Shown here: piece after piece, positions 6,657-17,510 of the stretch | Layout of the letters: every line of letters starts with the position of its first letter | How positions within the stretch are numbered: the stretch's first letter is position 1 | Assembly: GCA_964646815.1 (NCBI GenBank) | Contig: CAZYFH010000008.1 | Coordinates: forward strand, 8,675 to 72,674 | Reading direction: 5' to 3' | Source: an uncultured Vicinamibacteraceae bacterium | GTDB taxonomy: Bacteria; Acidobacteriota; Vicinamibacteria; Vicinamibacterales; UBA8438 | Length of the DNA: 64,000 nt | Translations under genes and position numbers: made by a program | The notes under the pieces: generated by a model | What the model saw: the letters and a program-made list of their open reading frames with translations, nothing else | Database searches by the model: none | Told to the model about the DNA's origin: nothing

Positions 6657-8162
6657 CTACTCGCCGTTGACGATTTGCAAGAAGTCAAAGTGTGAGCCGA
6701 CCAGCCCGTGGATGCCTACGTGACGCGTGACGTGAAGGCCGAGTTGCTCGATGTTCTGGGCCAGGCTGCGCATGCTCGCGGTCACGGCAGGCGGATCCGC
6801 GCCACTGGCGGGCGGCGAGTACAGGTCCGCATTGATCAGAATCCGCTCCGCGGGGAGGTGCACGATCAACATCGTGCCGGCGTGTCCCAGACGTAAAACG
6901 GGGTAGACATTCATGGTCCGCTCGCCGTCCGTGAGCGTGTACTCCTCGCCAACGAGCTCGAAGGTAGGGATGCGGTTTGACGCAAACCACGGCATCCGCC
7001 CCGATAAGATATCTGGTTCCAGCATGCGCGTGCCGGGATGGAAGAAGACGTTATTGTAGAAGGCGTGGTTTGCCTCGTGCGTGATGACGGTCGCGCTCTG
7101 TGCGACGTAGGTGCGGAGACCGCCGGCGTGATCGAAGTGATGGTGTGTGTTGACGACGTACCGAATCGGCTTGTCCGGGATTCGGCGGCGCAACTCCTCG
7201 ATGACGGCCAGCGAGCGCGCCTCGCTCTGTGGTGCCTCCACGACTGCCACGAAGTCTGAAAATTCGACCGCGACACTATGATGGGTCCCGCCGGTGACGA
7301 ACCATACGCCGTCGGCCATCTGGGTCGACCGGGCGACGAGGGACGGCCGCGCGGCGTCTCGCACGACGTCCGGCAGCGTCGGCGGCTCGGGGTCGATGTT
7401 GGGACGCGCGCTCGTCACGCGAATTTCCATCCAGTTGTGTCCGGGGTGAATCCGCGGATCGCCCTGGTGCGAGTGGAGGACCGTCGGGAACATCACTCCA
7501 TCGAATGCCTGGTAGTCCGTATAGCGATGGTCGTAAATCATGTCGCCGAACACGGGGTTTGGCACCCACGTTTGAACGCGTTCCACGAGATGGTCTTCGT
7601 TGATCGTGCCGTTGACCCGGTATCGGTCCATCGCGGTGAACGACACGATGGTCAGATCGCGACCCTCCAGGGTCAACGCCGTCGCTGTGGCGTCGTCCGC
7701 GGCGCCCGCAGCCTTCAGAAACCCGTGCGGCGACATCCAGATGTCGAGCTGCCGGACCGAGGCGGCTGCGGGTTGTGGCACCGGCGTGGAACCGAACACC
7801 GTCCAGCTATGCTCGCCGCTGGTCACGACGACGCGCGGTTGCTCGCCTAGGATGGGCGCGCCCCCGCCCCTCGGGGGATAGTTGCCCTGACGCCGCGTAT
7901 AGGCCTCCGTCGAGGAGCCAGTGTCGTAATCGATCGTGCGCGTATACTCGGTGATCTCGAACCTCGGCCAGTCGTCGGCGGGCGTGTGGCTCTGGCCGAC
8001 GTTCGCCGTCCAACCGGTGCCGGAGTACTCGATCGACGTCACGGTGTCCAGGTCGCCCATCGCCGTGGCGGCCGCGTCCAACACCCCGTCGACGTCCTGA
8101 GCCGCGGCAGAGGTGGCGATCAGTACGCCGAACGCGGCGACAACGAAAAGTCTCCAAACCAT
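6657..8162 (-). CDS. MBL-fold metallo-hydrolase with N-terminal extra domain, secreted
   Basis: Contains the HHHFDHAGG (HxHxDH) motif. The internal Met at 8162 starts a clear signal peptide (MVWRLFVVAAFGVLIATSAAAQD). Confidence 0.7.
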   Translation of the reverse strand: MVWRLFVVAAFGVLIATSAAAQDVDGVLDAAATAMGDLDTVTSIEYSGTGWTANVGQSHTPADDWPRFEITEYTRTIDYDTGSSTEAYTRRQGNYPPRGGGAPILGEQPRVVVTSGEHSWTVFGSTPVPQPAAASVRQLDIWMSPHGFLKAAGAADDATATALTLEGRDLTIVSFTAMDRYRVNGTINEDHLVERVQTWVPNPVFGDMIYDHRYTDYQAFDGVMFPTVLHSHQGDPRIHPGHNWMEIRVTSARPNIDPEPPTLPDVVRDAARPSLVARSTQMADGVWFVTGGTHHSVAVEFSDFVAVVEAPQSEARSLAVIEELRRRIPDKPIRYVVNTHHHFDHAGGLRTYVAQSATVITHEANHAFYNNVFFHPGTRMLEPDILSGRMPWFASNRIPTFELVGEEYTLTDGERTMNVYPVLRLGHAGTMLIVHLPAERILINADLYSPPASGADPPAVTASMRSLAQNIEQLGLHVTRHVGIHGLVGSHFDFLQIVNGE

Positions 8163-8558
8163 GTCTTCCCCCCCACGTTGTGTCAAAAGGGAATCATAGC
8201 TCGGGCGGCCGGCGACCACACGCCCTCCGGCACGCCGGGTTGGCATGGACACTTGGGAACGGCCGGGGTAGTTCGAGAATTGCACGATTTCGGGTCGTTG
8301 CGACAGGCCGAACCGATCTCTCCAAACCTCTCGTCAATCGAGCCTTCGTCGCCACACTGCCGAACTAGCCGTGTGGCGCGGTTCTGAGCTACGTGGCGAC
8401 CTGGCGGCGGAGGCAACCGCGAGGGACGGGGGGTGGCCAAGGGGAACCGCCCAGGCGTACCGTGCTCCCGACGCAGTGCCGGCTTCCGCACGCTCAACGC
8501 GCTCGGGCGGGTTCGTCGCGCGTCGTATGATGGCCAGCTCTCCGAGAGGAGAGGTGTC

Positions 8559-8969
8559 ATGCATTGTGCGTGGATGGTCGTCGGTCTGATCCTGTTTGCG
8601 CTCCCCATCACCGCAACGTTCCAGGATGCCATCGCGAGAGCCAGAAGTGACGGGCTCGCGTCGATTTTCGCCGAGGCTACGGTCATGGACTGGGACCTGA
8701 ACGTGATCAGCCAGGGGAGTGACGACTGGACATGTCTGTCGGATCGACCGAATATTCCCGGCAACGACCCCTGGTGTGTGACCGTCGTCTGGCTCGACTT
8801 TCTCAAGGCCTACGTCAACCAGACGGAACCGACGTACTCGACCTTCGGTTTCGCGTACATGTTGCAGGGCGACACCCCGGTGAGCAACACTGAACGGCCG
8901 ACGGGGTGTCCCGTCCTGGCCCGGGACCCCGGGCTCCTGGGCGACCGCGTGAATCGCAGCGTAGAATGA
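8559..8969 (+). CDS. Hypothetical small secreted protein
   Basis: ATG at 8559 is preceded by GAGAGGAGAGG and followed by a signal-like MHCAWMVVGLILFALPITA. No family recognised. Confidence 0.4.
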   Translation: MHCAWMVVGLILFALPITATFQDAIARARSDGLASIFAEATVMDWDLNVISQGSDDWTCLSDRPNIPGNDPWCVTVVWLDFLKAYVNQTEPTYSTFGFAYMLQGDTPVSNTERPTGCPVLARDPGLLGDRVNRSVE

Positions 8970-9002
8970 GTCGCGGCGTTTGACCACCCGATAGACCAAT
9001 TG

Positions 9003-9135
9003 ATGGCCGTCCAGGTCGGTTCGCGGCTGGGGTATTACAACGTCACCGCCCTCATCGGCGAGGGCCGTTGGGAAAGGTGTGGGAAGCTTTCGGTACCAAG
9101 CTCAACCAAGTGGCGCTCAAGCTCCTACCCCCTTA
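9003..9135 (+). pseudogene. Ser/Thr protein kinase N-terminal stub (frameshifted, truncated after subdomain II)
   Basis: MAVQVGSRLGYYNVTALIGEG in one frame continues in another frame as MGKVWEAFGTKLNQVALKLLPP. This reconstitutes the G-loop (GxGxxG) and VAxK lysine motif of Hanks kinases. Nothing kinase-like follows. Confidence 0.45.
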
Positions 9136-9306
9136 TGTGTGCCGACTTTGGAGGCAGGGGGTCTTCGACGAGGGGCTGGCTCACCGGATTGAGGCGGGTG
9201 CCAACATGTTCCTGATGCGTGCAGCGGAGAGTTCCTGCGTTAAACTGATGGACCATTTCCAGGGGCGACCGATGCGGGAACATCGCCTGGAGCAAGGAGA
9301 ATCGAT

Positions 9307-9972
9307 ATGAAGAGAGTTCAAAGCGCTATTGTTCTGGCCGCGCTCGTCGCGCTGGCTTCATCTGTGTATACGCAACAGGCTCCCATGAGCTTTTTCGTAA
9401 CCAGCACAGGACCGGGTGACGGCGCCAACCTCGGCGGACTCGAAGGTGCGGACGCCCACTGTCAGATGCTCGCGGCCGGTGTCGGTCGTGGCAGCGCCAC
9501 CTGGCGCGCCTACCTCAGTCAAGCTTCGGGTTTTCGGGGTCCGGCTGCGATTAACGCCCGCGATCGCATCGGAACCGGCCCGTGGTACAACGCAAATGGG
9601 GCGATGATTGCGGCGAACGTCACAGATCTTCACGGAGATGTCCAGCGCGACCGAAACAACATCCGCAAGCCCACCGCGCTGGACGAAAACGGGGAAGAGG
9701 TCAAGGGAGTCGGGGACCAGCCCAACGAACACGATGTTCTGACCGGCTCGGACTCCCACGGCCGGGTCGTTGGACCCGTTGGCACGGCCGCGGCGACCAC
9801 CTGTGACAACTGGACCAGTAACGGTGACGGTGCGGCTATCGTTGGCCACCACGACCGTCTTGGTGGTCCCAACGCATCGTGGAATTCGGCGCATTCCAGT
9901 TTCGGCTGCAGCCAGGAGAATCTGGTGGCGACCGGCGGTGCCGGACTCTTTTACTGCTTCGCGAGCAACTGA
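9307..9972 (+). CDS. Secreted endostatin/DUF1554-like (C-type-lectin-fold-like) protein
   Basis: Signal peptide MKRVQSAIVLAALVALASSVYTQQ. The blocks FFVTS...GGLEGADAHCQMLAAGVG...WRAYLS and ...TGSDSHGR...TCDNWTS...GCSQENL...FYCFA parallel the collagen XVIII endostatin pattern (GGMRGIRGADFQCFQQA...FRAFLSS...HGSDPNGRR...YCETW...C). GC appears locally lower than the neighbours. Confidence 0.5.
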   Translation: MKRVQSAIVLAALVALASSVYTQQAPMSFFVTSTGPGDGANLGGLEGADAHCQMLAAGVGRGSATWRAYLSQASGFRGPAAINARDRIGTGPWYNANGAMIAANVTDLHGDVQRDRNNIRKPTALDENGEEVKGVGDQPNEHDVLTGSDSHGRVVGPVGTAAATTCDNWTSNGDGAAIVGHHDRLGGPNASWNSAHSSFGCSQENLVATGGAGLFYCFASN

Positions 9973-10029
9973 TGTGATTCCGGGAGGTTCGCGACACCGG
10001 CATGTGTTCCACGGGAGCGGTCGAGTGGC

Positions 10030-10221
10030 CTACGGTCGTCTCCCGGTGCGGTGTCCGCGAGCATCCTTTGCCCGCTCGCGTCCACCACGTTGCGGTAGCC
10101 GATGGGGGTAACGGACGGCCAGAGGTCCTGCTGAGCCTTTTCCGTCATTCCCTTCCGGGTCTCCTCCGAGAGGTTGTCGATGTAGTTCTTGACCATCAAC
10201 ACCTTGATGCCGTGTATGGGC
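10030..10221 (-). pseudogene. Serine recombinase (resolvase/large serine recombinase family) internal fragment
   Basis: The translation SPIHGIKVLMVKNYIDNLSEETRKGMTEKAQQDLWPSVTPIGYRNV matches the conserved ...HGIKVLMAKNYIDNLSEE..KG...A..G.WP...P.GY block. A stop lies immediately upstream, there is no catalytic N-terminal domain, and the C-terminal part has degenerated. Confidence 0.6.
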
Positions 10222-10300
10222 GATAGGCGCTACTAGACCCTCTTGTCAACATAACGCTCGTTCTTCGACCCCGACGCTAGACGCCTCACGCCCCGCTTGA

Positions 10301-10706
10301 GTCTTCGACAACGACATCGTAATCGCGCTCGCGCTGTATGGCGTCGAGTTTTTTGCGGACAAGATCCCGTGGGTCGACTTGCTCTGGGATGCGGTCCACA
10401 CGCCGATCCGACCGCTGGGCGGCGCCGTCATCACGGTGATGGCGCTGGGGGCGAGGCGACCACGAGCAGCGGGGGGGTGATGGCCCATGTCGGCGGGGCG
10501 GTAGCGCCGGCGCGCACCTGACGAAGGCGATCACCCGCGCCGCCGTGAACAGGAAGCCGGAGTCGGCGTCGAACTGGGTGCTGAGCTTCGCCGAAGACGG
10601 GTTCGTCATCGGGCTGGGCATCCTGACGCTGAGCGACCCGGTGGCCGCGCTCGTCGTCGCCAGCGTCCTGTTTCTGCTGATTCTGCTCTTCCTCGGTGCC
10701 ATCTGA
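10301..10706 (+). pseudogene. DUF4126 membrane protein, N-terminally truncated with two frameshifts
   Basis: Frame 1 reads IALALYGVEFFADKIPWVDLLWDAVHTPIRPLGGAVITVMALG, which contains the DUF4126 hallmark E.FADKIPWVD. Frame 2 reads VMAHVGGAVAPA. Frame 3 reads HLTKAITRAAVNRKPESASNWVLSFAEDGFVIGLGILTL...LFLGAI*. The first shift is at a G7 run (~10471-10477). Confidence 0.6.
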
Positions 10707-10751
10707 CGCTCCCGCGCCCGCCTGGCGCTGGCTGGCTGCTCGCCGCACGGC

Positions 10752-10780
10752 GCCCGCCTGGACCCGCCAGACAGGCGGGC
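10752..10780. terminator. GC-rich hairpin between convergent DUF4126 remnant and frdD
   Basis: GCCCGCCTG-(11 nt)-CAGGCGGGC forms a perfect 9-bp stem. No U-tract. Confidence 0.3.
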
Positions 10781-10862
10781 AGAGACGTCCGACCGGAGAC
10801 ATCAACCCTCCCGTCGATGATTCTGACGACGCGTAGCCTGAAGGGGGGAGATGCTTCGCCGA

Positions 10863-11225
10863 TCACATCGCGAGGAACAGCAGGTAGGCGGCGACAACCG
10901 AGCCAGTAAACGCCCCGCCGTAGGTGCCGACGAGGATTATCCCATTCAGATGCCTGATCTGTGCACCATCGTACAGCGTATAGCGGAATCGGTGAGCCGC
11001 GTGAAACAGCGATAGGACACAGAGGACGAGCAGGTAAAGACGTGTCACCGGAGATTTGAGCAATCCGAGGAGGCTGTCATAACCTGGAGCTTCGATCCAG
11101 CCTAGAGGAAAGGCCAGACCGAAGAGGAACACATGCACGGGTAGGAGGAACGCAGCTGTGACCCCTCCCGCGCTGAAGAGCGTCCAGAAGAAAGCCACGT
11201 AGGATTTCTTCGCCATTCTAGCCAC
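10863..11225 (-). CDS. frdD: Fumarate reductase membrane anchor subunit D
   Basis: 120 aa with three hydrophobic segments. The FFWTLFSAGGV motif parallels E. coli FrdD (FWGLFGAGGM). Last gene of an A-B-C-D order, overlapping frdC. Confidence 0.7.
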   Translation of the reverse strand: MARMAKKSYVAFFWTLFSAGGVTAAFLLPVHVFLFGLAFPLGWIEAPGYDSLLGLLKSPVTRLYLLVLCVLSLFHAAHRFRYTLYDGAQIRHLNGIILVGTYGGAFTGSVVAAYLLFLAM

Positions 11226-11634
11226 CGAGGACGAACCAGGCGACGACGCCCGATAACACGACCCACGCCACGTAGTGAGGCGCGATGATCAGTGGATCGG
11301 GAACGCGCTTTCCACCCACTCGAAGGATCAGCGCTCGGGCCGTGATGTGGAACCAGGTGAAAGTGTGGAGGAGGAGGAAAAGTAAGGCGACGATGTTCAC
11401 GAGAACGACGAGGGGATGCGTCATGAACTCCTGAAATGCCGCGTGCTCAGCCCTTCCCTGACCCAACGCGTGAACTTGCATTAGCGTGATCACAATGAAG
11501 TACGCCACGAACACACTGCTCAGTTCCCGCAGCATGAACTTCGCGTGAGACCATTGTAAAAGCCACCAGTAAGGAGATACACGCGTACGGTACCACTGCG
11601 GGTGAAACTCCTGGTATGCCGGATTACTCTTCAT
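11218..11634 (-). CDS. frdC: Fumarate reductase membrane anchor subunit C
   Basis: ATG at 11634 overlaps the frdB stop (ATGA). [14 protein letters not shown]...LRELSSVF...[14 protein letters not shown] parallels E. coli FrdC (WWKKLPFYRFYMLREGTAV...LLHTKTWFELAPKA). Confidence 0.7.
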
Positions 11635-12374
11635 TCCGCGCCCCGGGGCATGATGAAGGATTGGAACCAGTCCACTGTCGCGGTCAATTTGTATTGTTGG
11701 ATGGCCCGCGCGGGGTCGACATTCTTCGGGCACACTTTGGTGCACTCGCCAACGAACGTGCAGCCCCAGACTCCATCGTGGTCTGAGAGCACGTCAAGGC
11801 GCTCCCGCGATCCCTGATCCCGTGAATCCATGTTGTAGCGCTGAGCGAGGGCGATCGCCGCCGGCCCGGTGAAATTTGAATCCAGTCCGTAGACAGGACA
11901 CGCGGAATAGCACAGCATGCAGTTGATGCACATGCTGAACTGTTTGTAGGCGTCCAGTTGCGCTGGGCTCTGAAGATACTCTCCTGCTGACACGGGTTTT
12001 TCGTCTCTTGGGATGATCCACGGCTTGACACTTTTGAGTTTTCCCATGAAATCGGTCATGTCGATCGTGAGATCGCGAATGATCGGGAAGTAACGGAGCG
12101 GTTCGATGCGGACGGGGCCTGGCGCGTAATCGGACACGAACGTCGCACACGTCAGCTTGGGTTCCCCGTTGACCATCATGCCGCAACTGCCGCAGATTCC
12201 CATCCGACAGGACCATCGGAACGACAGCGATCCGTCGATCTTGTCCTTGATGTAGTTCAGGGCGTCGAGGAGAACCCACTCATCGCTGAATGGAACCTCG
12301 TACTCTTGAATCGTCGGTTCCGTTTCCTGCTCGGGCCGGTACCGCGTGACATGGAGGACGACCTTGTCTGTCAT
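11631..12374 (-). CDS. frdB: Succinate dehydrogenase/fumarate reductase iron-sulfur subunit
   Basis: Cys clusters typical of the 2Fe-2S, 4Fe-4S and 3Fe-4S centres: [39 protein letters not shown]. Confidence 0.9.
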
Positions 12375-12380
12375 GCGCGC

Positions 12381-14129
12381 CTACTTTCCATAGACTCGTT
12401 CCGAAGGCGGCCAACGGGTGATGGTCACCGGGAGGTACTCAATTCGGGACGAGCCATCTTCATTTCGGTAGAAGAGCGAATGCGCGAGGAAATCAGCGTC
12501 GTTCCGGTCGGGGAAATCGGTCCGTTGGTGAGCTCCACGGGATTCGGTTCGATTTAAGCCGCACCGGACGATCGCAGCAGCCACGTCGAGCATGTATGCA
12601 AGCTCGAGTGCTGAGGTCAATTCAGTGTTGAAGGTCCGGCTATCGTCTTCGATCAGGACGTTGCGGAAGCGATCTTGGAGTTCTCGGATCTTGTCCGTCG
12701 ATTTCTTGAGCGCCTCGCGGTTTCTGTAGATGCCCGCGCCCTCCTCCATAGCGGCCTGCATTTCTTGCCTGATCGTCGCGATCCGTTCGGTGCCACCCGT
12801 CTTTCGTAGATACTGCTCTTCCAGGCGACGGCGTTCGTCGTTGGCCTGAGCCACAATGTGCTTCGAGGGCTCCTTCTGATCCGAAGCGAAGGCCGCCGCC
12901 GCCTTCCCTGCGCGGGCTCCGAACACGAGCAGCTCTGGTAGAGAATTCGATCCAAGGCGATTCGCCCCGTTGATGCTGACGCAGGCGACCTCGCCGGCGG
13001 CAAACAAGCCGGCGATCGGGGTTGCACCGTCCTTGTCCGTATGAACGCCTCCCATGCAGTAATGAACGACAGGTCGGACGGGAATCATCTCTCGGACGGG
13101 ATCGATGTTCTGGTACTTGATGCAGAGCTCCCGGACGAACGGGATCCTGGCGTCGATCTTCTTTTCTCCTAGATGCCGGAGATCGAGATTGACGACGTGA
13201 CCGTGCGGACCTTCGATCGTGCGTCCTTGTGCCTGTTCCTTGACGAAGGCCTGCGACAGGCGGTCCCGTGGACCCAGTTCCATCGAGCGCAGCACAGGTT
13301 CGCGCTCGGGTGTGCCCAGATCGTAATCCTGCAGATAACGATATTCGTCCTTATTCACTAGATAACCGCCCTCCGCTCTCGCGGCTTCCGTGATTAGGAT
13401 GCCGGTGAACGGAAGGCCGGTCGGATGGTACTGGACGAACTCCATGTCCTTCAGAGGCGCACCGGCCCAGAGTGCCAACGCCATTCCGTCGCCGTTCTTG
13501 ATGTTGGCGTTCGTGGTGAACGGAAACACTTTGCCGCAGCCGCCGGTGCAGAGGATTACCGCCTTCGCGGTGATCGCCACGATCTTCCCGGACATCAGTT
13601 CCAAGGCCACCACGCCTTGCACTCGGCCATCGTCGACGAGCAATTTGGTGACGAACCACTCGTCATACCGGACGATGGGGTCGTACTTGAGCGATGTCTG
13701 GAACAACGTGTGGAGCATGTGGAAGCCGGTCTTGTCCGATGCAAACCAGGTCCGCTTCTTCTTCATGCCGCCAAACGGCCGTACCGCGATTCGTCCGTCC
13801 GGCGTCCGGCTCCACGGACAGCCCCAGTGCTCCATCTGCAGTAGTTCTTTGGGAGCTTCGTCTACAAACAGTTCGACCGCGTCTTGGTCGCATAGCCAGT
13901 CGCCCCCGGAAACGGTGTCGTAGGCGTGTTCATCGAGGCTGTCGTCCTGTGCGACCGCACCCGCGGCACCACCCTCCGCCGAAACCGTGTGGCTCCGCAT
14001 CGGATAGACCTTCGAGACCACGGCAACGCTGAGTTCGGGTTTGGACTCCGCTACGGTAATAGCCGCGCGAAGACCTGCACCGCCACCACCAACAAGGAGA
14101 ACATCGTGAGAGAAGACGTCCACTACCAC
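12381..14129 (-). CDS. frdA: Succinate dehydrogenase/fumarate reductase flavoprotein subunit
   Basis: The FAD-binding site contains [10 protein letters not shown]. Also has [10 protein letters not shown] (covalent-FAD His region) and HYCMGG. 582 aa. The start could be the GTG at 14123, after GAGG. Confidence 0.9.
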
Positions 14130-14239
14130 CTCGAGTAACGTGTACGGCGAAGAATCGTGACGGAAACGGTCAAGACCTTACCTAACGCGTCTTCGTCAAT
14201 TAGTCCACGGAGACCTATCAAATGCTGAGCGAGATTTGG

Positions 14240-14374
14240 CTAATGCGCGGCAAGGAGTTCGTCGACGAGCGTGTTGCCGTTGTGATGAACCACTGTTCGG
14301 TCGACGCTGCCGTCGTGGTACTCGTGACAAGTAATGGCGCACCCGCAAGCGTAGCACTCATATTCGGTGACCAT
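14240..14374 (-). CDS. Possible small Cys/His-rich protein (44 aa) upstream of frdA
   Basis: ATG is preceded by GAGGAAATC. Sequence is MVTEYECYACGCAITCHEYHDGSVDRTVVHHNGNTLVDELLAAH. No homology recognised and coding status is uncertain. Confidence 0.25.
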   Translation of the reverse strand: MVTEYECYACGCAITCHEYHDGSVDRTVVHHNGNTLVDELLAAH

Positions 14375-14876
14375 GATTTCCTCGTCTCGGTCCTCGTAGC
14401 GCTCGCCGTCCATGGTATTGCCGCACGCGGCACTTTGGTTCTTGAAGGCGGGCGCTGGATCCATCGCTCTGCCAGAGCGATTGTTCGACCTTCTGCCTTT
14501 ACCGCCGATCCTGGCGTCTCTTGGTCGACCGCTCCCGGGTAGTTGGCCGCCACGTCGAAGTCTCAAGGAATCTACGAGACACGATACTAGCACTGGGGAC
14601 GAACGTGGGGCTAGGCGATCCCAATCTCGGAGCTAGGATCGAGCCATGTGTTACGGGAGCGGTACTCGTGCATGAGAGCGGTGAGGGCTCTGGGTTCTCC
14701 GATCCGATCTGGGGGATATCCGAATATGCCTTTCATGAAGGCAATCACGCCGCCGAACTTGCTGTTCCGGTCCAGGGCGAAAGATGCTAGATGGCACAGT
14801 CGACTCGAGTCGGAGCGTTTCATTCACGTCCGTACGGAACGTGGCCCTCGCCTTCGGCATCGCGCTGCCTCATCGC

Positions 14877-14904
14877 TTGACACTCACCTCGCCCTGGCGA
14901 TAAT
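14877..14904 (+). promoter_or_regulatory. Sigma70-type promoter for the cytochrome c / PQQ operon
   Basis: TTGACA, a 16-nt spacer, then GATAAT, ending about 30 nt upstream of the ATG at 14935. AGGA lies ~10 nt before the start. Confidence 0.45.
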
Positions 14905-14934
14905 CGCCCCGATGCAGCGCAGGACTGCGAGTTC

Positions 14935-15810
14935 ATGCTGACTCGCCACATCACCGCCGTTGCCGCGGTCGCCGTCATAATCGCGACTGGCACCGCCATC
15001 GCGCGCGGGGCCGGTCGTTCCACTGGTCCCGCTTCGGAAGGGCAGCAAGGCCGCCGCCAGCGGATCTATCCGGCGCTGCAGCGTCCACCCGGTGATCCCG
15101 CCGTGATCGCGCGCGGTCGGGGACTGTACGATCTCAACTGCCGTGCCTGCCACGGCGCCGATTTGCGCGGCGGGGATCTTGGTGGGCCCAATCTGCTGCG
15201 GTCGCAGCTCGTGCTCGGCGACCGGCAAGGTGAGTCGATGTGGCCGGTCATGCGGGACGGGCAGTCGTCGCCGGGCGAAGAATCGATGCCGCCGCAGCCG
15301 TTGACCGAGGACGATGGGCGCGCGGTTGCGGAGTTCATCCACAGCATCCTCGCCTCGGCCACGCCGCAGGGCGGGCCGCCGCGGGGTGATCGCGTGGAGC
15401 TGAACGTACTGGTGGGGGACGCGGCGGCGGGCGAGGTCTACTTCGCCGCGACCTGCGCGGCCTGTCACTCGGCCGGTGGGGACCTGCAGGGGATCGCCAC
15501 CCGGATCCCGGATGCGAAGCAATTGCAGAACACCTGGGTCCGCGGCGGCGCGCGGGCCGCCACTCGACCGCCAGTCCTGGTGACGGTGACCGAGCCGTCC
15601 GGCGAGCGCGTGGAAGGCCGGCTCGATCGGCTGGACGACTTCATCGTTGTGCTCACGACGCCTGATGGCCGACATCGGTCGTTCAGCCGGCGTGGCGGCG
15701 TGCCCGCGGTGGAGGTCGATGATCCGATGTCGCGCCACACCGAGCTGCTCACCGAGTACAGCGACGCGAACATCCACGACGTCACGGCGTATCTGGCCAC
15801 GCTCAAATGA
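14935..15810 (+). CDS. Diheme c-type cytochrome, secreted
   Basis: Signal-like N-terminus and two CxxCH sites (CRACH, CAACH). The stop overlaps the start of the next gene (ATGA). Confidence 0.75.
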   Translation: MLTRHITAVAAVAVIIATGTAIARGAGRSTGPASEGQQGRRQRIYPALQRPPGDPAVIARGRGLYDLNCRACHGADLRGGDLGGPNLLRSQLVLGDRQGESMWPVMRDGQSSPGEESMPPQPLTEDDGRAVAEFIHSILASATPQGGPPRGDRVELNVLVGDAAAGEVYFAATCAACHSAGGDLQGIATRIPDAKQLQNTWVRGGARAATRPPVLVTVTEPSGERVEGRLDRLDDFIVVLTTPDGRHRSFSRRGGVPAVEVDDPMSRHTELLTEYSDANIHDVTAYLATLK

Positions 15811-17510
15811 CACGCACAAACGTCGTGCTCATCGCGTCGTTGTTAGGCGGGATTGGGGGGCTGGGTGCAGTTGTCGCGCCCGCTGTGCTCGCCGGGCAGG
15901 AGCGGGGTAGCGTCGATCCGGCCTCGCTTCTGGAGCCGCTGAAAGATTCGTGGCCCACCTACTCCGGTGACTACACCGGCCGGCGCTACAGCGGCCTCGC
16001 AGAGGTCACCACCGAGACGGTGACGCGCCTCTCGCTAGCCTGGACCAGGCAGTTGGACACCGGCATGCCGAGGCTCGACGACAGCGCGGGCAGGCGCGGC
16101 GAGACTCCCACGTTCGTCGGTGGAAGAGGGACCGGCGAGTTCACGATCGGTAGCCAGCGTATCAAGGGCAGTATCCTGCAGGTCGGCGATCTGCTATATG
16201 CGACGGCACCGGACCACGTGTGGGCGCTCGACGCCCGCGACGGCGGGGTACGCTGGCACTACTTCTGGAAGACGCGGGGAGGCCCCCACATCGGGAACCG
16301 CGGCGCGGCCTTGTGGCACGACTATCTCTTCTTTGAGACCCCCGACAACTACCTCGTCTCCCTCGACGCGCGGACCGGCGAGGAGCGATGGCACACCGAG
16401 ATCGCGAGCTTCGACGAGCAGTACTTCTCCACGATGTCGCCCATCGTGATCGGCAATCACGTGCTGGCCGGAACGGGCAACGACCTCGACGCACCGGGGT
16501 TCCTGCAGTCGTTCGATCCGGAAACAGGCGAGCGGCAGTGGCGGTTTTACACGGTCCCGATGAGTCCGGGTGACCCAGGCCTCGATACCTGGCCCAACCT
16601 GGACGCGGCACGCCATGGCGGCGGGCAGGTCTGGGTCCCCGGCGTCTACGATCCCGATACCAACTACTACATCTTCGGCACGGGCAACCCGACGCCCGGG
16701 TACACGGGTGTGGCCCGACCGGGCGACAACCTGTTCACCTGCACCCTCATGGCCGTCGATGTCGATACGGGTGAGATGGGGTGGTACTTCCAGACTTCGC
16801 CTCACGATACGCATGACTGGGACTCCGCACAGACGCCGGTCCTGATTGACGGGATCGTGAACGGCGAGCCTCGCAAGCTCGTGTCGACCGCGGCGCGAAA
16901 CGGCTACTTCTTCACCGTCGATCGCGTGACCGGCGCACACATCGCGACGAGTCGATACGGGGCCACCTCGAACTGGGCCAGCCACATCCGAGACAGCGGG
17001 TCTCCCAATCCCGATCCCGACAAAGAGGCGATCATTCCCGGTGCGCTCGTCTCTCCAGTCGAAGGAGGCGTCGCGAACTGGCAGCCGCCAGCGTTCAACC
17101 CCGACACGGGGCTCTTCTACACGCAGGAGAACAACGGGTTCAATCTTCTGTATCTGACCGACCCAGATCCGCGCGGCTCGATGGGACTGGGGGGCAAGGA
17201 TCGGGTGCCGGTCGGCTCTGGCGGAAACGCCTTTTCGGCGATCGACTACCGGACCGGTCGAACGGTCTGGCGGCATCCGTGGCCACCCGGGGGCGGCGGC
17301 GGAGCCGGCGTGCTAACGACCGCGGGTGGCGTCGTCTTCACCGGCGACGGTAGCGGGAATTTCGTGGCGTTCGACGCGGCGGATGGCCGTCTCGTCTGGC
17401 ACACGCGGATCGGCAATATCTCGAACGCGCCGGAGACGTATCTGCTCGATGGGCGCCAGCACGTCCTGGTGGCCGTCGGTGACCGCCTGTTCGCGTTCGT
17501 GCTGTACTGA
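15807..17510 (+). CDS. PQQ-dependent dehydrogenase, methanol/ethanol-family-like quinoprotein
   Basis: The N-terminal DSWPTYSGDYTGRRYSGL...LAW block and repeated propeller W motifs match the family. No vicinal Cys-Cys pair is seen. Translationally coupled to the cytochrome c gene. Confidence 0.8.
   Translation: MTRTNVVLIASLLGGIGGLGAVVAPAVLAGQERGSVDPASLLEPLKDSWPTYSGDYTGRRYSGLAEVTTETVTRLSLAWTRQLDTGMPRLDDSAGRRGETPTFVGGRGTGEFTIGSQRIKGSILQVGDLLYATAPDHVWALDARDGGVRWHYFWKTRGGPHIGNRGAALWHDYLFFETPDNYLVSLDARTGEERWHTEIASFDEQYFSTMSPIVIGNHVLAGTGNDLDAPGFLQSFDPETGERQWRFYTVPMSPGDPGLDTWPNLDAARHGGGQVWVPGVYDPDTNYYIFGTGNPTPGYTGVARPGDNLFTCTLMAVDVDTGEMGWYFQTSPHDTHDWDSAQTPVLIDGIVNGEPRKLVSTAARNGYFFTVDRVTGAHIATSRYGATSNWASHIRDSGSPNPDPDKEAIIPGALVSPVEGGVANWQPPAFNPDTGLFYTQENNGFNLLYLTDPDPRGSMGLGGKDRVPVGSGGNAFSAIDYRTGRTVWRHPWPPGGGGGAGVLTTAGGVVFTGDGSGNFVAFDAADGRLVWHTRIGNISNAPETYLLDGRQHVLVAVGDRLFAFVLY

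Follow-up and report, generated by a model that had tools for sequence, protein, structure and literature searches.

A probable compound rearrangement scar around an intact secreted-protein gene in an uncultured marine acidobacterium

The segment at 8895-10830 of the window (the whole 64-kb stretch of DNA analysed here, from an uncultured marine bacterium) spans about 1.9 kb with at least six junctions and is, with a probability that we put at roughly 0.6, a compound rearrangement scar left by several events and not a working system. Several separate events would have brought side by side pieces of at least four unrelated genes, namely a 3'-cut secreted-protein gene, the 5' stub of a kinase gene, an internal piece of a recombinase gene whose source would be an integrative element that died long ago, and a DUF4126 gene that is frameshifted and cut at its 5' end. 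The scar would stop where the conserved frdABCD-mdh-pckA cluster is broken. Most likely, the events were mobile-DNA insertion and loss, IS-type insertions and deletions by illegitimate recombination. A putative endostatin-like secreted-protein unit, which, judging from its codon composition, would be a horizontal arrival from a lower-GC3 genome, would have survived because selection keeps it. Features of this kind are known: the locus is an ordinary scar left by repeated rearrangement and represents no new system or mechanism. All four features described in a first-pass annotation of this DNA (kinase stub, signal-peptide gene, serine recombinase fragment and DUF4126 remnant) proved real and correctly placed when checked by homology and DNA alignments. 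The features of the region are the following:

8559-8969, plus strand: 136-aa ORF, probably a 3'-truncated gene; family homology ends at 8894
9003-9135, plus strand: Ser/Thr kinase 5' stub of 44 codons, with homology to four kinase 5' ends (DNA alignment)
9143-9238, plus strand: tentative glycogen-synthase-like trace (LAHRIEAGANMFLM...), seen with NCBIfam GlgA models
9173-10030, plus strand: intact-gene module, recurring in other genomes with unrelated flanks
9307-9972, plus strand: intact gene for a 221-aa secreted protein, with dN/dS values, homologs and DUF1554, LenA/B and endostatin matches
10044-10217, minus strand: piece from within a large serine recombinase (about residues 131-189 of some 530)
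10218-10300, no strand: spacer with one copy (10262-10275) of an imperfect 14-nt repeat
10301-10760, plus strand: DUF4126 pseudogene without about its first 44 codons, by homology to L088:10133-10590 and PF13548
10831-14269, minus strand: frdABCD block, whose frdD-side end is a breakpoint at the mdh stop codon

Concerning the source of the DNA, the closest matches to the metallo-beta-lactamase-fold protein at 6657-8285 come from MAGs of Vicinamibacteria/Vicinamibacterales with no more than 74% protein identity, and the frd operon DNA is 92-93% identical to two Vicinamibacterales assemblies. The stretch at 8301-11300, frameshifts included, is matched without gaps at 100% or 99.93% identity by six independent metagenome assemblies (two spanning all of it and the remainder part), which stem from five samples and different assemblers. 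Given this identity, the population carries these frameshifts and junctions as real, fixed features, so that the frameshifts are not read artefacts and the rearrangement scar with its truncated genes, as it had been described, is genuine. A group II intron or other RNA inside the scar was considered and rejected, as Rfam returned nothing at E ≤ 1 over 8000-15000.

No closer genome was found in which the locus is unbroken, and the relatives compared share 82-93% DNA identity with the window and may differ from the ancestral arrangement. Synteny was followed from the metallo-beta-lactamase gene through 80 genome loci (best match 74%), none of which has frd, DUF4126 or the intact gene comparably arranged, and from FrdD in metagenomes, where nothing was common beyond the frd operon itself. 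In the sampled relatives, frd, DUF4126 and the secreted-protein gene are each intact at a location of their own, on separate contigs or at a long distance from one another. The uninterrupted arrangement of kinase and DUF4126 that the first-pass annotation had led us to look for is present in none of them; intact DUF4126 is preceded by other genes. Fragment-rich and IS-rich regions are common in related genomes.

The scar reaches beyond the segment originally described at both sides. On the left, the ORF at 8559-8969 has 430 homologs at E ≤ 1e-3 with a conserved domain covering query residues about 10-114, but the homology ends at residue 112 ('...VSNT', 8894) and the final 24 codons are unrelated. 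Family members (P0312, P0307) extend for about 60 conserved residues beyond this break, and these residues occur in no frame of 8200-9400, as would be seen in a gene that has probably lost its 3' end. On the right, the frd block at 10831-14269 has 92.8% nucleotide identity to L140 and 91.7% to L141/L142 (L numbers denote fetched loci), where frdD is followed by a convergent mdh (malate/lactate dehydrogenase) and then by pckA (PEP carboxykinase). The homology stops at the mdh stop codon ('...GCGTAG', 10831), and neither mdh nor pckA is found in the window. In this marine acidobacterial lineage, fumarate reductase is thus no longer linked, as it usually is, to malate dehydrogenase and PEP carboxykinase. 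The frd operon was also considered as a recent foreign island and rejected as such, its low GC being common to the relatives and hence no sign of recent transfer. With the additional breakpoints at 8894 and 10831, there are more breaks than one event would account for. Besides the spacer at 10218-10300, which matches no fetched locus, the scar contains further spacers at 8895-9002 and 10761-10830.

The kinase stub starts with an ATG at 9003, and its homology ends at about 9133-9135, directly after the VALKLLP codons. When repaired, it shows 28/44 identity (64%) with residues 1-44 of an 861-aa Ser/Thr kinase (pairwise E-value = 6e-17) and covers positions 1-32 of the 263 of Pfam Pkinase (PF00069, E-value = 0.3). 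It keeps the G-loop and the VAxK lysine and nothing further, as had been noticed at first sight; with homology stopping at about 9135, the catalytic loop (HRD), the DFG and APE motifs and an intact frame are all absent. The single frameshift reported for it corresponds to a 1-nt deletion at about 9068, in the second Gly codon of the G-loop, and is accompanied by an in-frame 3-nt deletion of one codon. Such 5' stubs are common in relatives. Specifically, a 13.5-kb contig (L005) carries four separate stubs along with one real kinase, and a 21.5-kb locus (L016) has a real kinase and five kinase fragments, four of which are 5' ends, with transposase genes of the IS256, IS110 and Mu types scattered among them. 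One of the L016 stubs is the product of the insertion of an IS110-family element, whose terminal inverted repeats measure 11 nt, at ...AAGATCCT|CCCC, a point 4-6 nt from the end of the kinase stub in the window. The two stubs are thus alike in ending at almost the same point, and they differ in that the scar of the window keeps no IS sequence and no inverted repeat. Since 5' stubs are common and one of them was made by an IS110 element, the stub of the window gives no specific pointer to a recombinase event. Additionally, a group II intron lies within the G-loop codons of a kinase gene in L089, so that related loci include one kinase gene with an IS110-family element, and another with a group II intron, within its first 45 codons. 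The conserved 5' end of this large family of Vicinamibacteria Ser/Thr-kinase paralogs might be a favoured site of mobile-DNA landing or breakage, a conjecture that we regard as improbable; if it were true, the stub would be the remnant of a targeted insertion, possibly of a recombinase-bearing element.

The DUF4126 remnant shows 81.8% nucleotide identity over 10301-10760 to the intact gene at L088:10133-10590, and after frame repair it matches positions 46-172 of the 175 of PF13548 (E-value = 2.3e-29). Its truncation, as first reported, was confirmed. The two frameshifts that had been counted turned out to be four indels (-6, +2, -1 and +7 nt) together with a premature TGA at 10704, and the homology runs to 10760, 54 nt beyond the end given at 10706. 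The coding sequence is spread over three frames and the full-length domain is absent from any single open frame, while full-length homologs have 195-203 aa. These multiple indels and the stop codon show that the inactivation is old. The GC3 of the pseudogene is 0.88-0.94. In the loci with intact DUF4126 (L088-093), the gene is preceded by an SLT-domain gene (SLT/NHL) or by an ankyrin-repeat (Ank) gene and a small ORF. The second copy (10302-10315) of the imperfect 14-nt repeat (family D10) whose first copy is in the spacer lies just inside the DUF4126 breakpoint. The kinase and DUF4126 had been described as truncated face to face, which holds for their broken ends, as these do face each other, and not for their orientation, both being on the plus strand. 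The missing 3' part of the kinase and the missing 5' part of DUF4126 are nowhere in the 64-kb window.

At the center of the scar, the gene at 9307-9972 is functional and under purifying selection, with a dN/dS of 0.13-0.19 against three homologs. Its 221-aa product begins with a signal-peptide-like sequence (judged by eye) and has more than 8000 homologs, the best 120 of which are 65-94% identical, with four invariant cysteines (C52, C166, C201 and C217). Matches to known families fell below the cut-offs, both for Pfam DUF1554 (PF07588; E-value = 0.0025, 18.1 bits against a cut-off of 27.5) and for NCBIfam LenA/B (E-value = 0.0022, 17.4 bits against a cut-off of 300), and a profile search of PDB returned three matches, all of them endostatin chains (E-values = 0.056-0.6). 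Taken together, these weak but concordant matches in three independent libraries (Pfam, NCBIfam and PDB) point to a secreted protein that is probably endostatin-like and related to DUF1554. The AlphaFold model reached a pLDDT of only 48, because the alignment was shallow, all of its sequences being at least 66% identical. The Len proteins of Leptospira are endostatin-like and have been described previously (PMC2063517). The product resembles them through its weak but specific similarity to DUF1554, LenA/B and the endostatin domain of collagen XVIII, as well as through its signal peptide and its four invariant cysteines; it differs in scoring under the family cut-offs and in belonging to a free-living marine acidobacterium, and the likeness is a predicted one. 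The locus highlights a very widespread, highly conserved and putatively endostatin-like secreted family, which is intact here where all of its surroundings have decayed.

The surviving unit comprises the intact gene with about 85-135 nt upstream and 25-60 nt downstream, in a module that is shared with other genomes. Four other contexts with at least 90% DNA identity to the gene were identified (L005, L132 and L143-145), and they hold IS elements and gene fragments. The module at 9173-10030 is 90.2% identical at the nucleotide level to L005:9881-10715, it is 93.3% identical to L143-145 over 9224-9994, and in L132 an internal piece alone (9414-9926) is found at 93.6% identity among transposase genes. 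The end points of the homology therefore vary with the context (9173/10030, 9224/9994 and 9414/9926), which does not indicate an element with fixed ends and fits a selected gene in unstable surroundings. In L143-145 the gene adjoins a PQQ dehydrogenase gene, and the flanking IS elements vary between strains. That the intact gene was ancestrally linked to a PQQ dehydrogenase was considered and rejected, as the L143 neighbour has no DNA homology to the PQQ genes of the window. Upstream of the gene, the trace at 9143-9238 may tentatively be a glycogen-synthase-like fragment, judging from a weak NCBIfam match (E-value = 0.002, model positions 352-383 of 482, far under the cut-off); from 9173 onward it is common to L005, with 93.75% conservation over 16 aa, and it had no match in PDB.

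The lower GC that had been noticed for this gene is modest in total GC (62.5% against a window mean of 65.0%) and clear in GC3, which is 0.68 against 0.79-0.85 for the neighbouring host genes. The L143 copy is likewise well under its neighbours with a GC3 of 0.72 (neighbours of the window and L143 copies, 0.79-0.89). The L005 copy, with 0.73, is at the level of its own neighbours, and copies at 83% protein identity are in a stable context with a GC3 of 0.80, equal to that of their neighbours. The composition suggests that the gene is foreign and originates from a genome with lower GC3, and the low GC3 of the window and L143 copies, together with the matching GC3 in L005, argues that this clade of the gene would have arrived horizontally from an L005-like genome.

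Next to the intact gene, 70 nt from its stop codon, lies the remnant of a mobile-element recombinase on the opposite strand, an internal fragment of about 60 aa as had been proposed. The sequence at 10217-10059 (minus strand) has 66% identity over 53 aa (E-value = 2e-18) with residues 131-183 of a 531-aa large serine recombinase from an IMG/VR contig, and the similarity fades by about 10044. There were 65 database matches at E ≤ 0.01, many with PF00239, and the identity to PF00239 proteins annotated as site-specific recombinases was 60-77%. The matches came from a large protein database and from IMG/VR contigs, whereas searches against plasmids, phages, PDB and Pfam gave either no match or weak, non-significant ones. 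By comparison with a full-length relative (L134, with Resolvase at 16-162, Recombinase at 190-274 and Zn_ribbon_recom at 290-343), the fragment corresponds to the last part of the Resolvase domain (helix E region) together with the linker. It starts at residue 131 and hence lacks the catalytic serine, the Recombinase domain (PF07508) and the zinc ribbon (PF13408) are absent from the window, and tblastn of the full-length 531-aa protein against the window revealed no second piece. The fragment is 66% identical to a protein of the same kind as CcrA/B/C of SCC elements, XisF and phage integrases (the best NCBIfam matches of the 531-aa protein being CcrB and XisF, below the cut-offs). Unlike active large serine recombinases, the window copy has no catalytic serine, no DNA-binding domains and no coiled coil and therefore cannot be active. 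The GC3 of the fragment (58 codons) is 0.88, like that of host genes and of the DUF4126 pseudogene.

The original interpretation was that one element, equipped with a large serine recombinase and carrying the secreted-protein gene as its cargo, had integrated between or into the kinase and DUF4126, replaced host sequence and then decayed until only the cargo gene was left. It is partly supported, since the recombinase fragment is so close to the stop codon of the intact gene, the gene is compositionally foreign and the broken ends of kinase and DUF4126 face the segment, but as an account of the whole locus we consider it unlikely. Nothing ties the intact gene to the recombinase, which differ in GC3 (0.68 against 0.88), and no recombinase stands beside the gene in L005, L006, L132, L133 or L143-145. 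To be whole, the recombinase gene would have to continue for about 1 kb further to the left, across the present position of the intact gene, which means that the latter interrupts the recombinase and is not its passenger. Related recombinases abut tRNA-Gln and not a kinase gene (their 3' end overlaps tRNA-Gln in three of six related viral contigs), and the window has no tRNA gene. The att-like direct repeats that had been expected to bound the segment are missing, as are hybrid att sites at its ends, and only short repeats at chance level are present. For instance, the 9-mer GTCTTCGAC occurs at 9161 and at 10301, the DUF4126 breakpoint; it was rejected as a target-site duplication, as the sequence to the left of 9161 has no homology to the DUF4126 5' part and such a repeat is not unexpected. 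Neither was a target gene found split in two halves around the segment, the kinase being represented only by its 5' part and DUF4126 only by its 3' part. Finally, a single element leaves the breakpoints at 8894 and 10831 unexplained. The evidence thus argues, though not decisively, against the recombinase as the vehicle of the intact gene. Remnants of genomic islands and 'grounded' prophages have been reviewed (PMC6379469), and the window is similar to them in its leftover recombinase fragment, its truncated neighbours and the one selected gene that was kept. In contrast to them, it keeps only 58 recombinase codons with no att sites or other element genes, it has no split target gene with both halves, and the retained gene does not share the composition of the recombinase.

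Another explanation is a patchwork made in one step, in which the joining of double-strand break ends captured as filler several short DNA pieces, copied from other parts of the genome or from incoming DNA, so that the fragments were never whole at this site. In its favour are the five unrelated pieces of 130-860 nt with short spacers, sharp homology ends throughout and no repeats or IS traces. We nevertheless hold it to be improbable: the four indels and the stop codon of DUF4126, at 82% identity to the nearest intact gene, imply long decay or a divergent source, and the pieces differ in composition and in apparent age. The compound scar is compatible with serial events as it is with one complex event. 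The scar shows no detectable trace of an IS, no inverted repeat and no att site, so that each of the proposed events is without a direct signature; how many events there were, in which order they came, and that a complete recombinase-bearing element was once present at the locus are what we infer. The locus is better read as a hotspot that gathered several insertions, deletions and rearrangements, while selection preserved a single small gene.

An assembly or sequencing artefact (a chimeric contig, false frameshifts), or the existence of real short genes at 9077-9310 (77 aa) and 9951-10196 (81 aa), where gene callers predicted ORFs, is hardly credible given the identical, gap-free assemblies described above, the course of the 77-aa ORF over the frameshifted kinase stub, and the 81-aa protein being the single member of its protein cluster and an internal piece of a 530-aa enzyme. 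For annotation purposes, these 77-aa and 81-aa pipeline 'genes' count as pseudogene debris and the DUF4126 ORFs as parts of a single dead gene.

Fragments of Ser/Thr-kinase genes like the 5' stub of the window (9003-9135, plus strand) recur in the comparison loci L005, a different context of the secreted-protein gene, and L016.

Ser/Thr-kinase fragments
L005: 786-949, 4027-4096, 8363-8501 and 11169-11234
L016: 2260-2730, 7153-7281, 8755-8877, 12277-12756 and 18924-19055

Almost all of them are 5' ends, and each shares the strand of a complete kinase gene that lies at the opposite extremity of the locus. Transposase genes of the IS256, IS110 and Mu/rve types lie between the fragments of L016. 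Two insertions inside kinase genes were located.

Insertions inside kinase genes
L016: 7282-8795, IS110-family element, interrupting the gene at codons LKIL|PE
L089 (a further comparison locus): 15141-17252, minus strand, group II intron (Rfam RF02005, E-value = 1.3e-14)

The IS110-family element is bounded by 11-nt terminal inverted repeats (ATGAAGCGGCT / AGCCGCTTCAT), and the window stub ends 4-6 nt from the position equivalent to its insertion point. The intron of L089, which carries a 441-aa reverse-transcriptase ORF, is inserted directly past the G-loop codons; the kinase gene is thereby left as an apparent 5' stub and a kinase that seems to lack its N terminus.

Only three copies of the 9-mer GTCTTCGAC are present in the window; two of them (9161-9169 and 10301-10309), both on the plus strand, each lie beside a junction of the scar. 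This pair may represent microhomology or chance; a target-site duplication was ruled out.

Concerning the large serine recombinase, of which the window retains a fragment (10217-10044, minus strand), full-length relatives in three IMG/VR contigs overlap a tRNA gene with their final ~20 codons.

tRNA-Gln overlapping the recombinase gene
L134, L135 and L137: 5276-5349 in each, strand opposite to the recombinase

The overlap lies at the border of the predicted viral region and suggests that integration took place at tRNA-Gln and that the recombinase gene reads through the junction.

The probably endostatin-like family of the secreted protein (window 9307-9972), which the sources leave unnamed, is very large (>8000 matches) and unusually conserved, with 65-94% identity among the top 120 homologs and ~80 invariant positions across 34 sequences. 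In a further contig the gene is incomplete.

Secreted-protein gene fragment
L132: 9949-10461, internal piece only, 93.6% identical to window 9414-9926

This piece is joined to transposase-like sequence, and the region contains ISL3, IS110 and DDE_3 transposase genes.

In the close relatives L140, L141 and L142, convergent genes for malate dehydrogenase and PEP carboxykinase come after frdABCD (window 10831-14269) and form with it a coherent reductive-branch cluster. Neither gene is present within the 64-kb window, and this linkage is lost in the window lineage. GC3 of the frd genes (0.68-0.73 in the window; 0.74 for frdA of L141) is below that of most adjacent genes in window and relatives alike. 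A small ORF lies directly upstream of frdA.

Small ORF
Window 14240-14593, minus strand

It had no Pfam match. Five metagenome loci that are more distant (L110, L117, L118, L123 and L124) conserve it at the same place, upstream of frdA, with 43-54% protein identity. Most of it has been deleted from L141 and L142, both close relatives.
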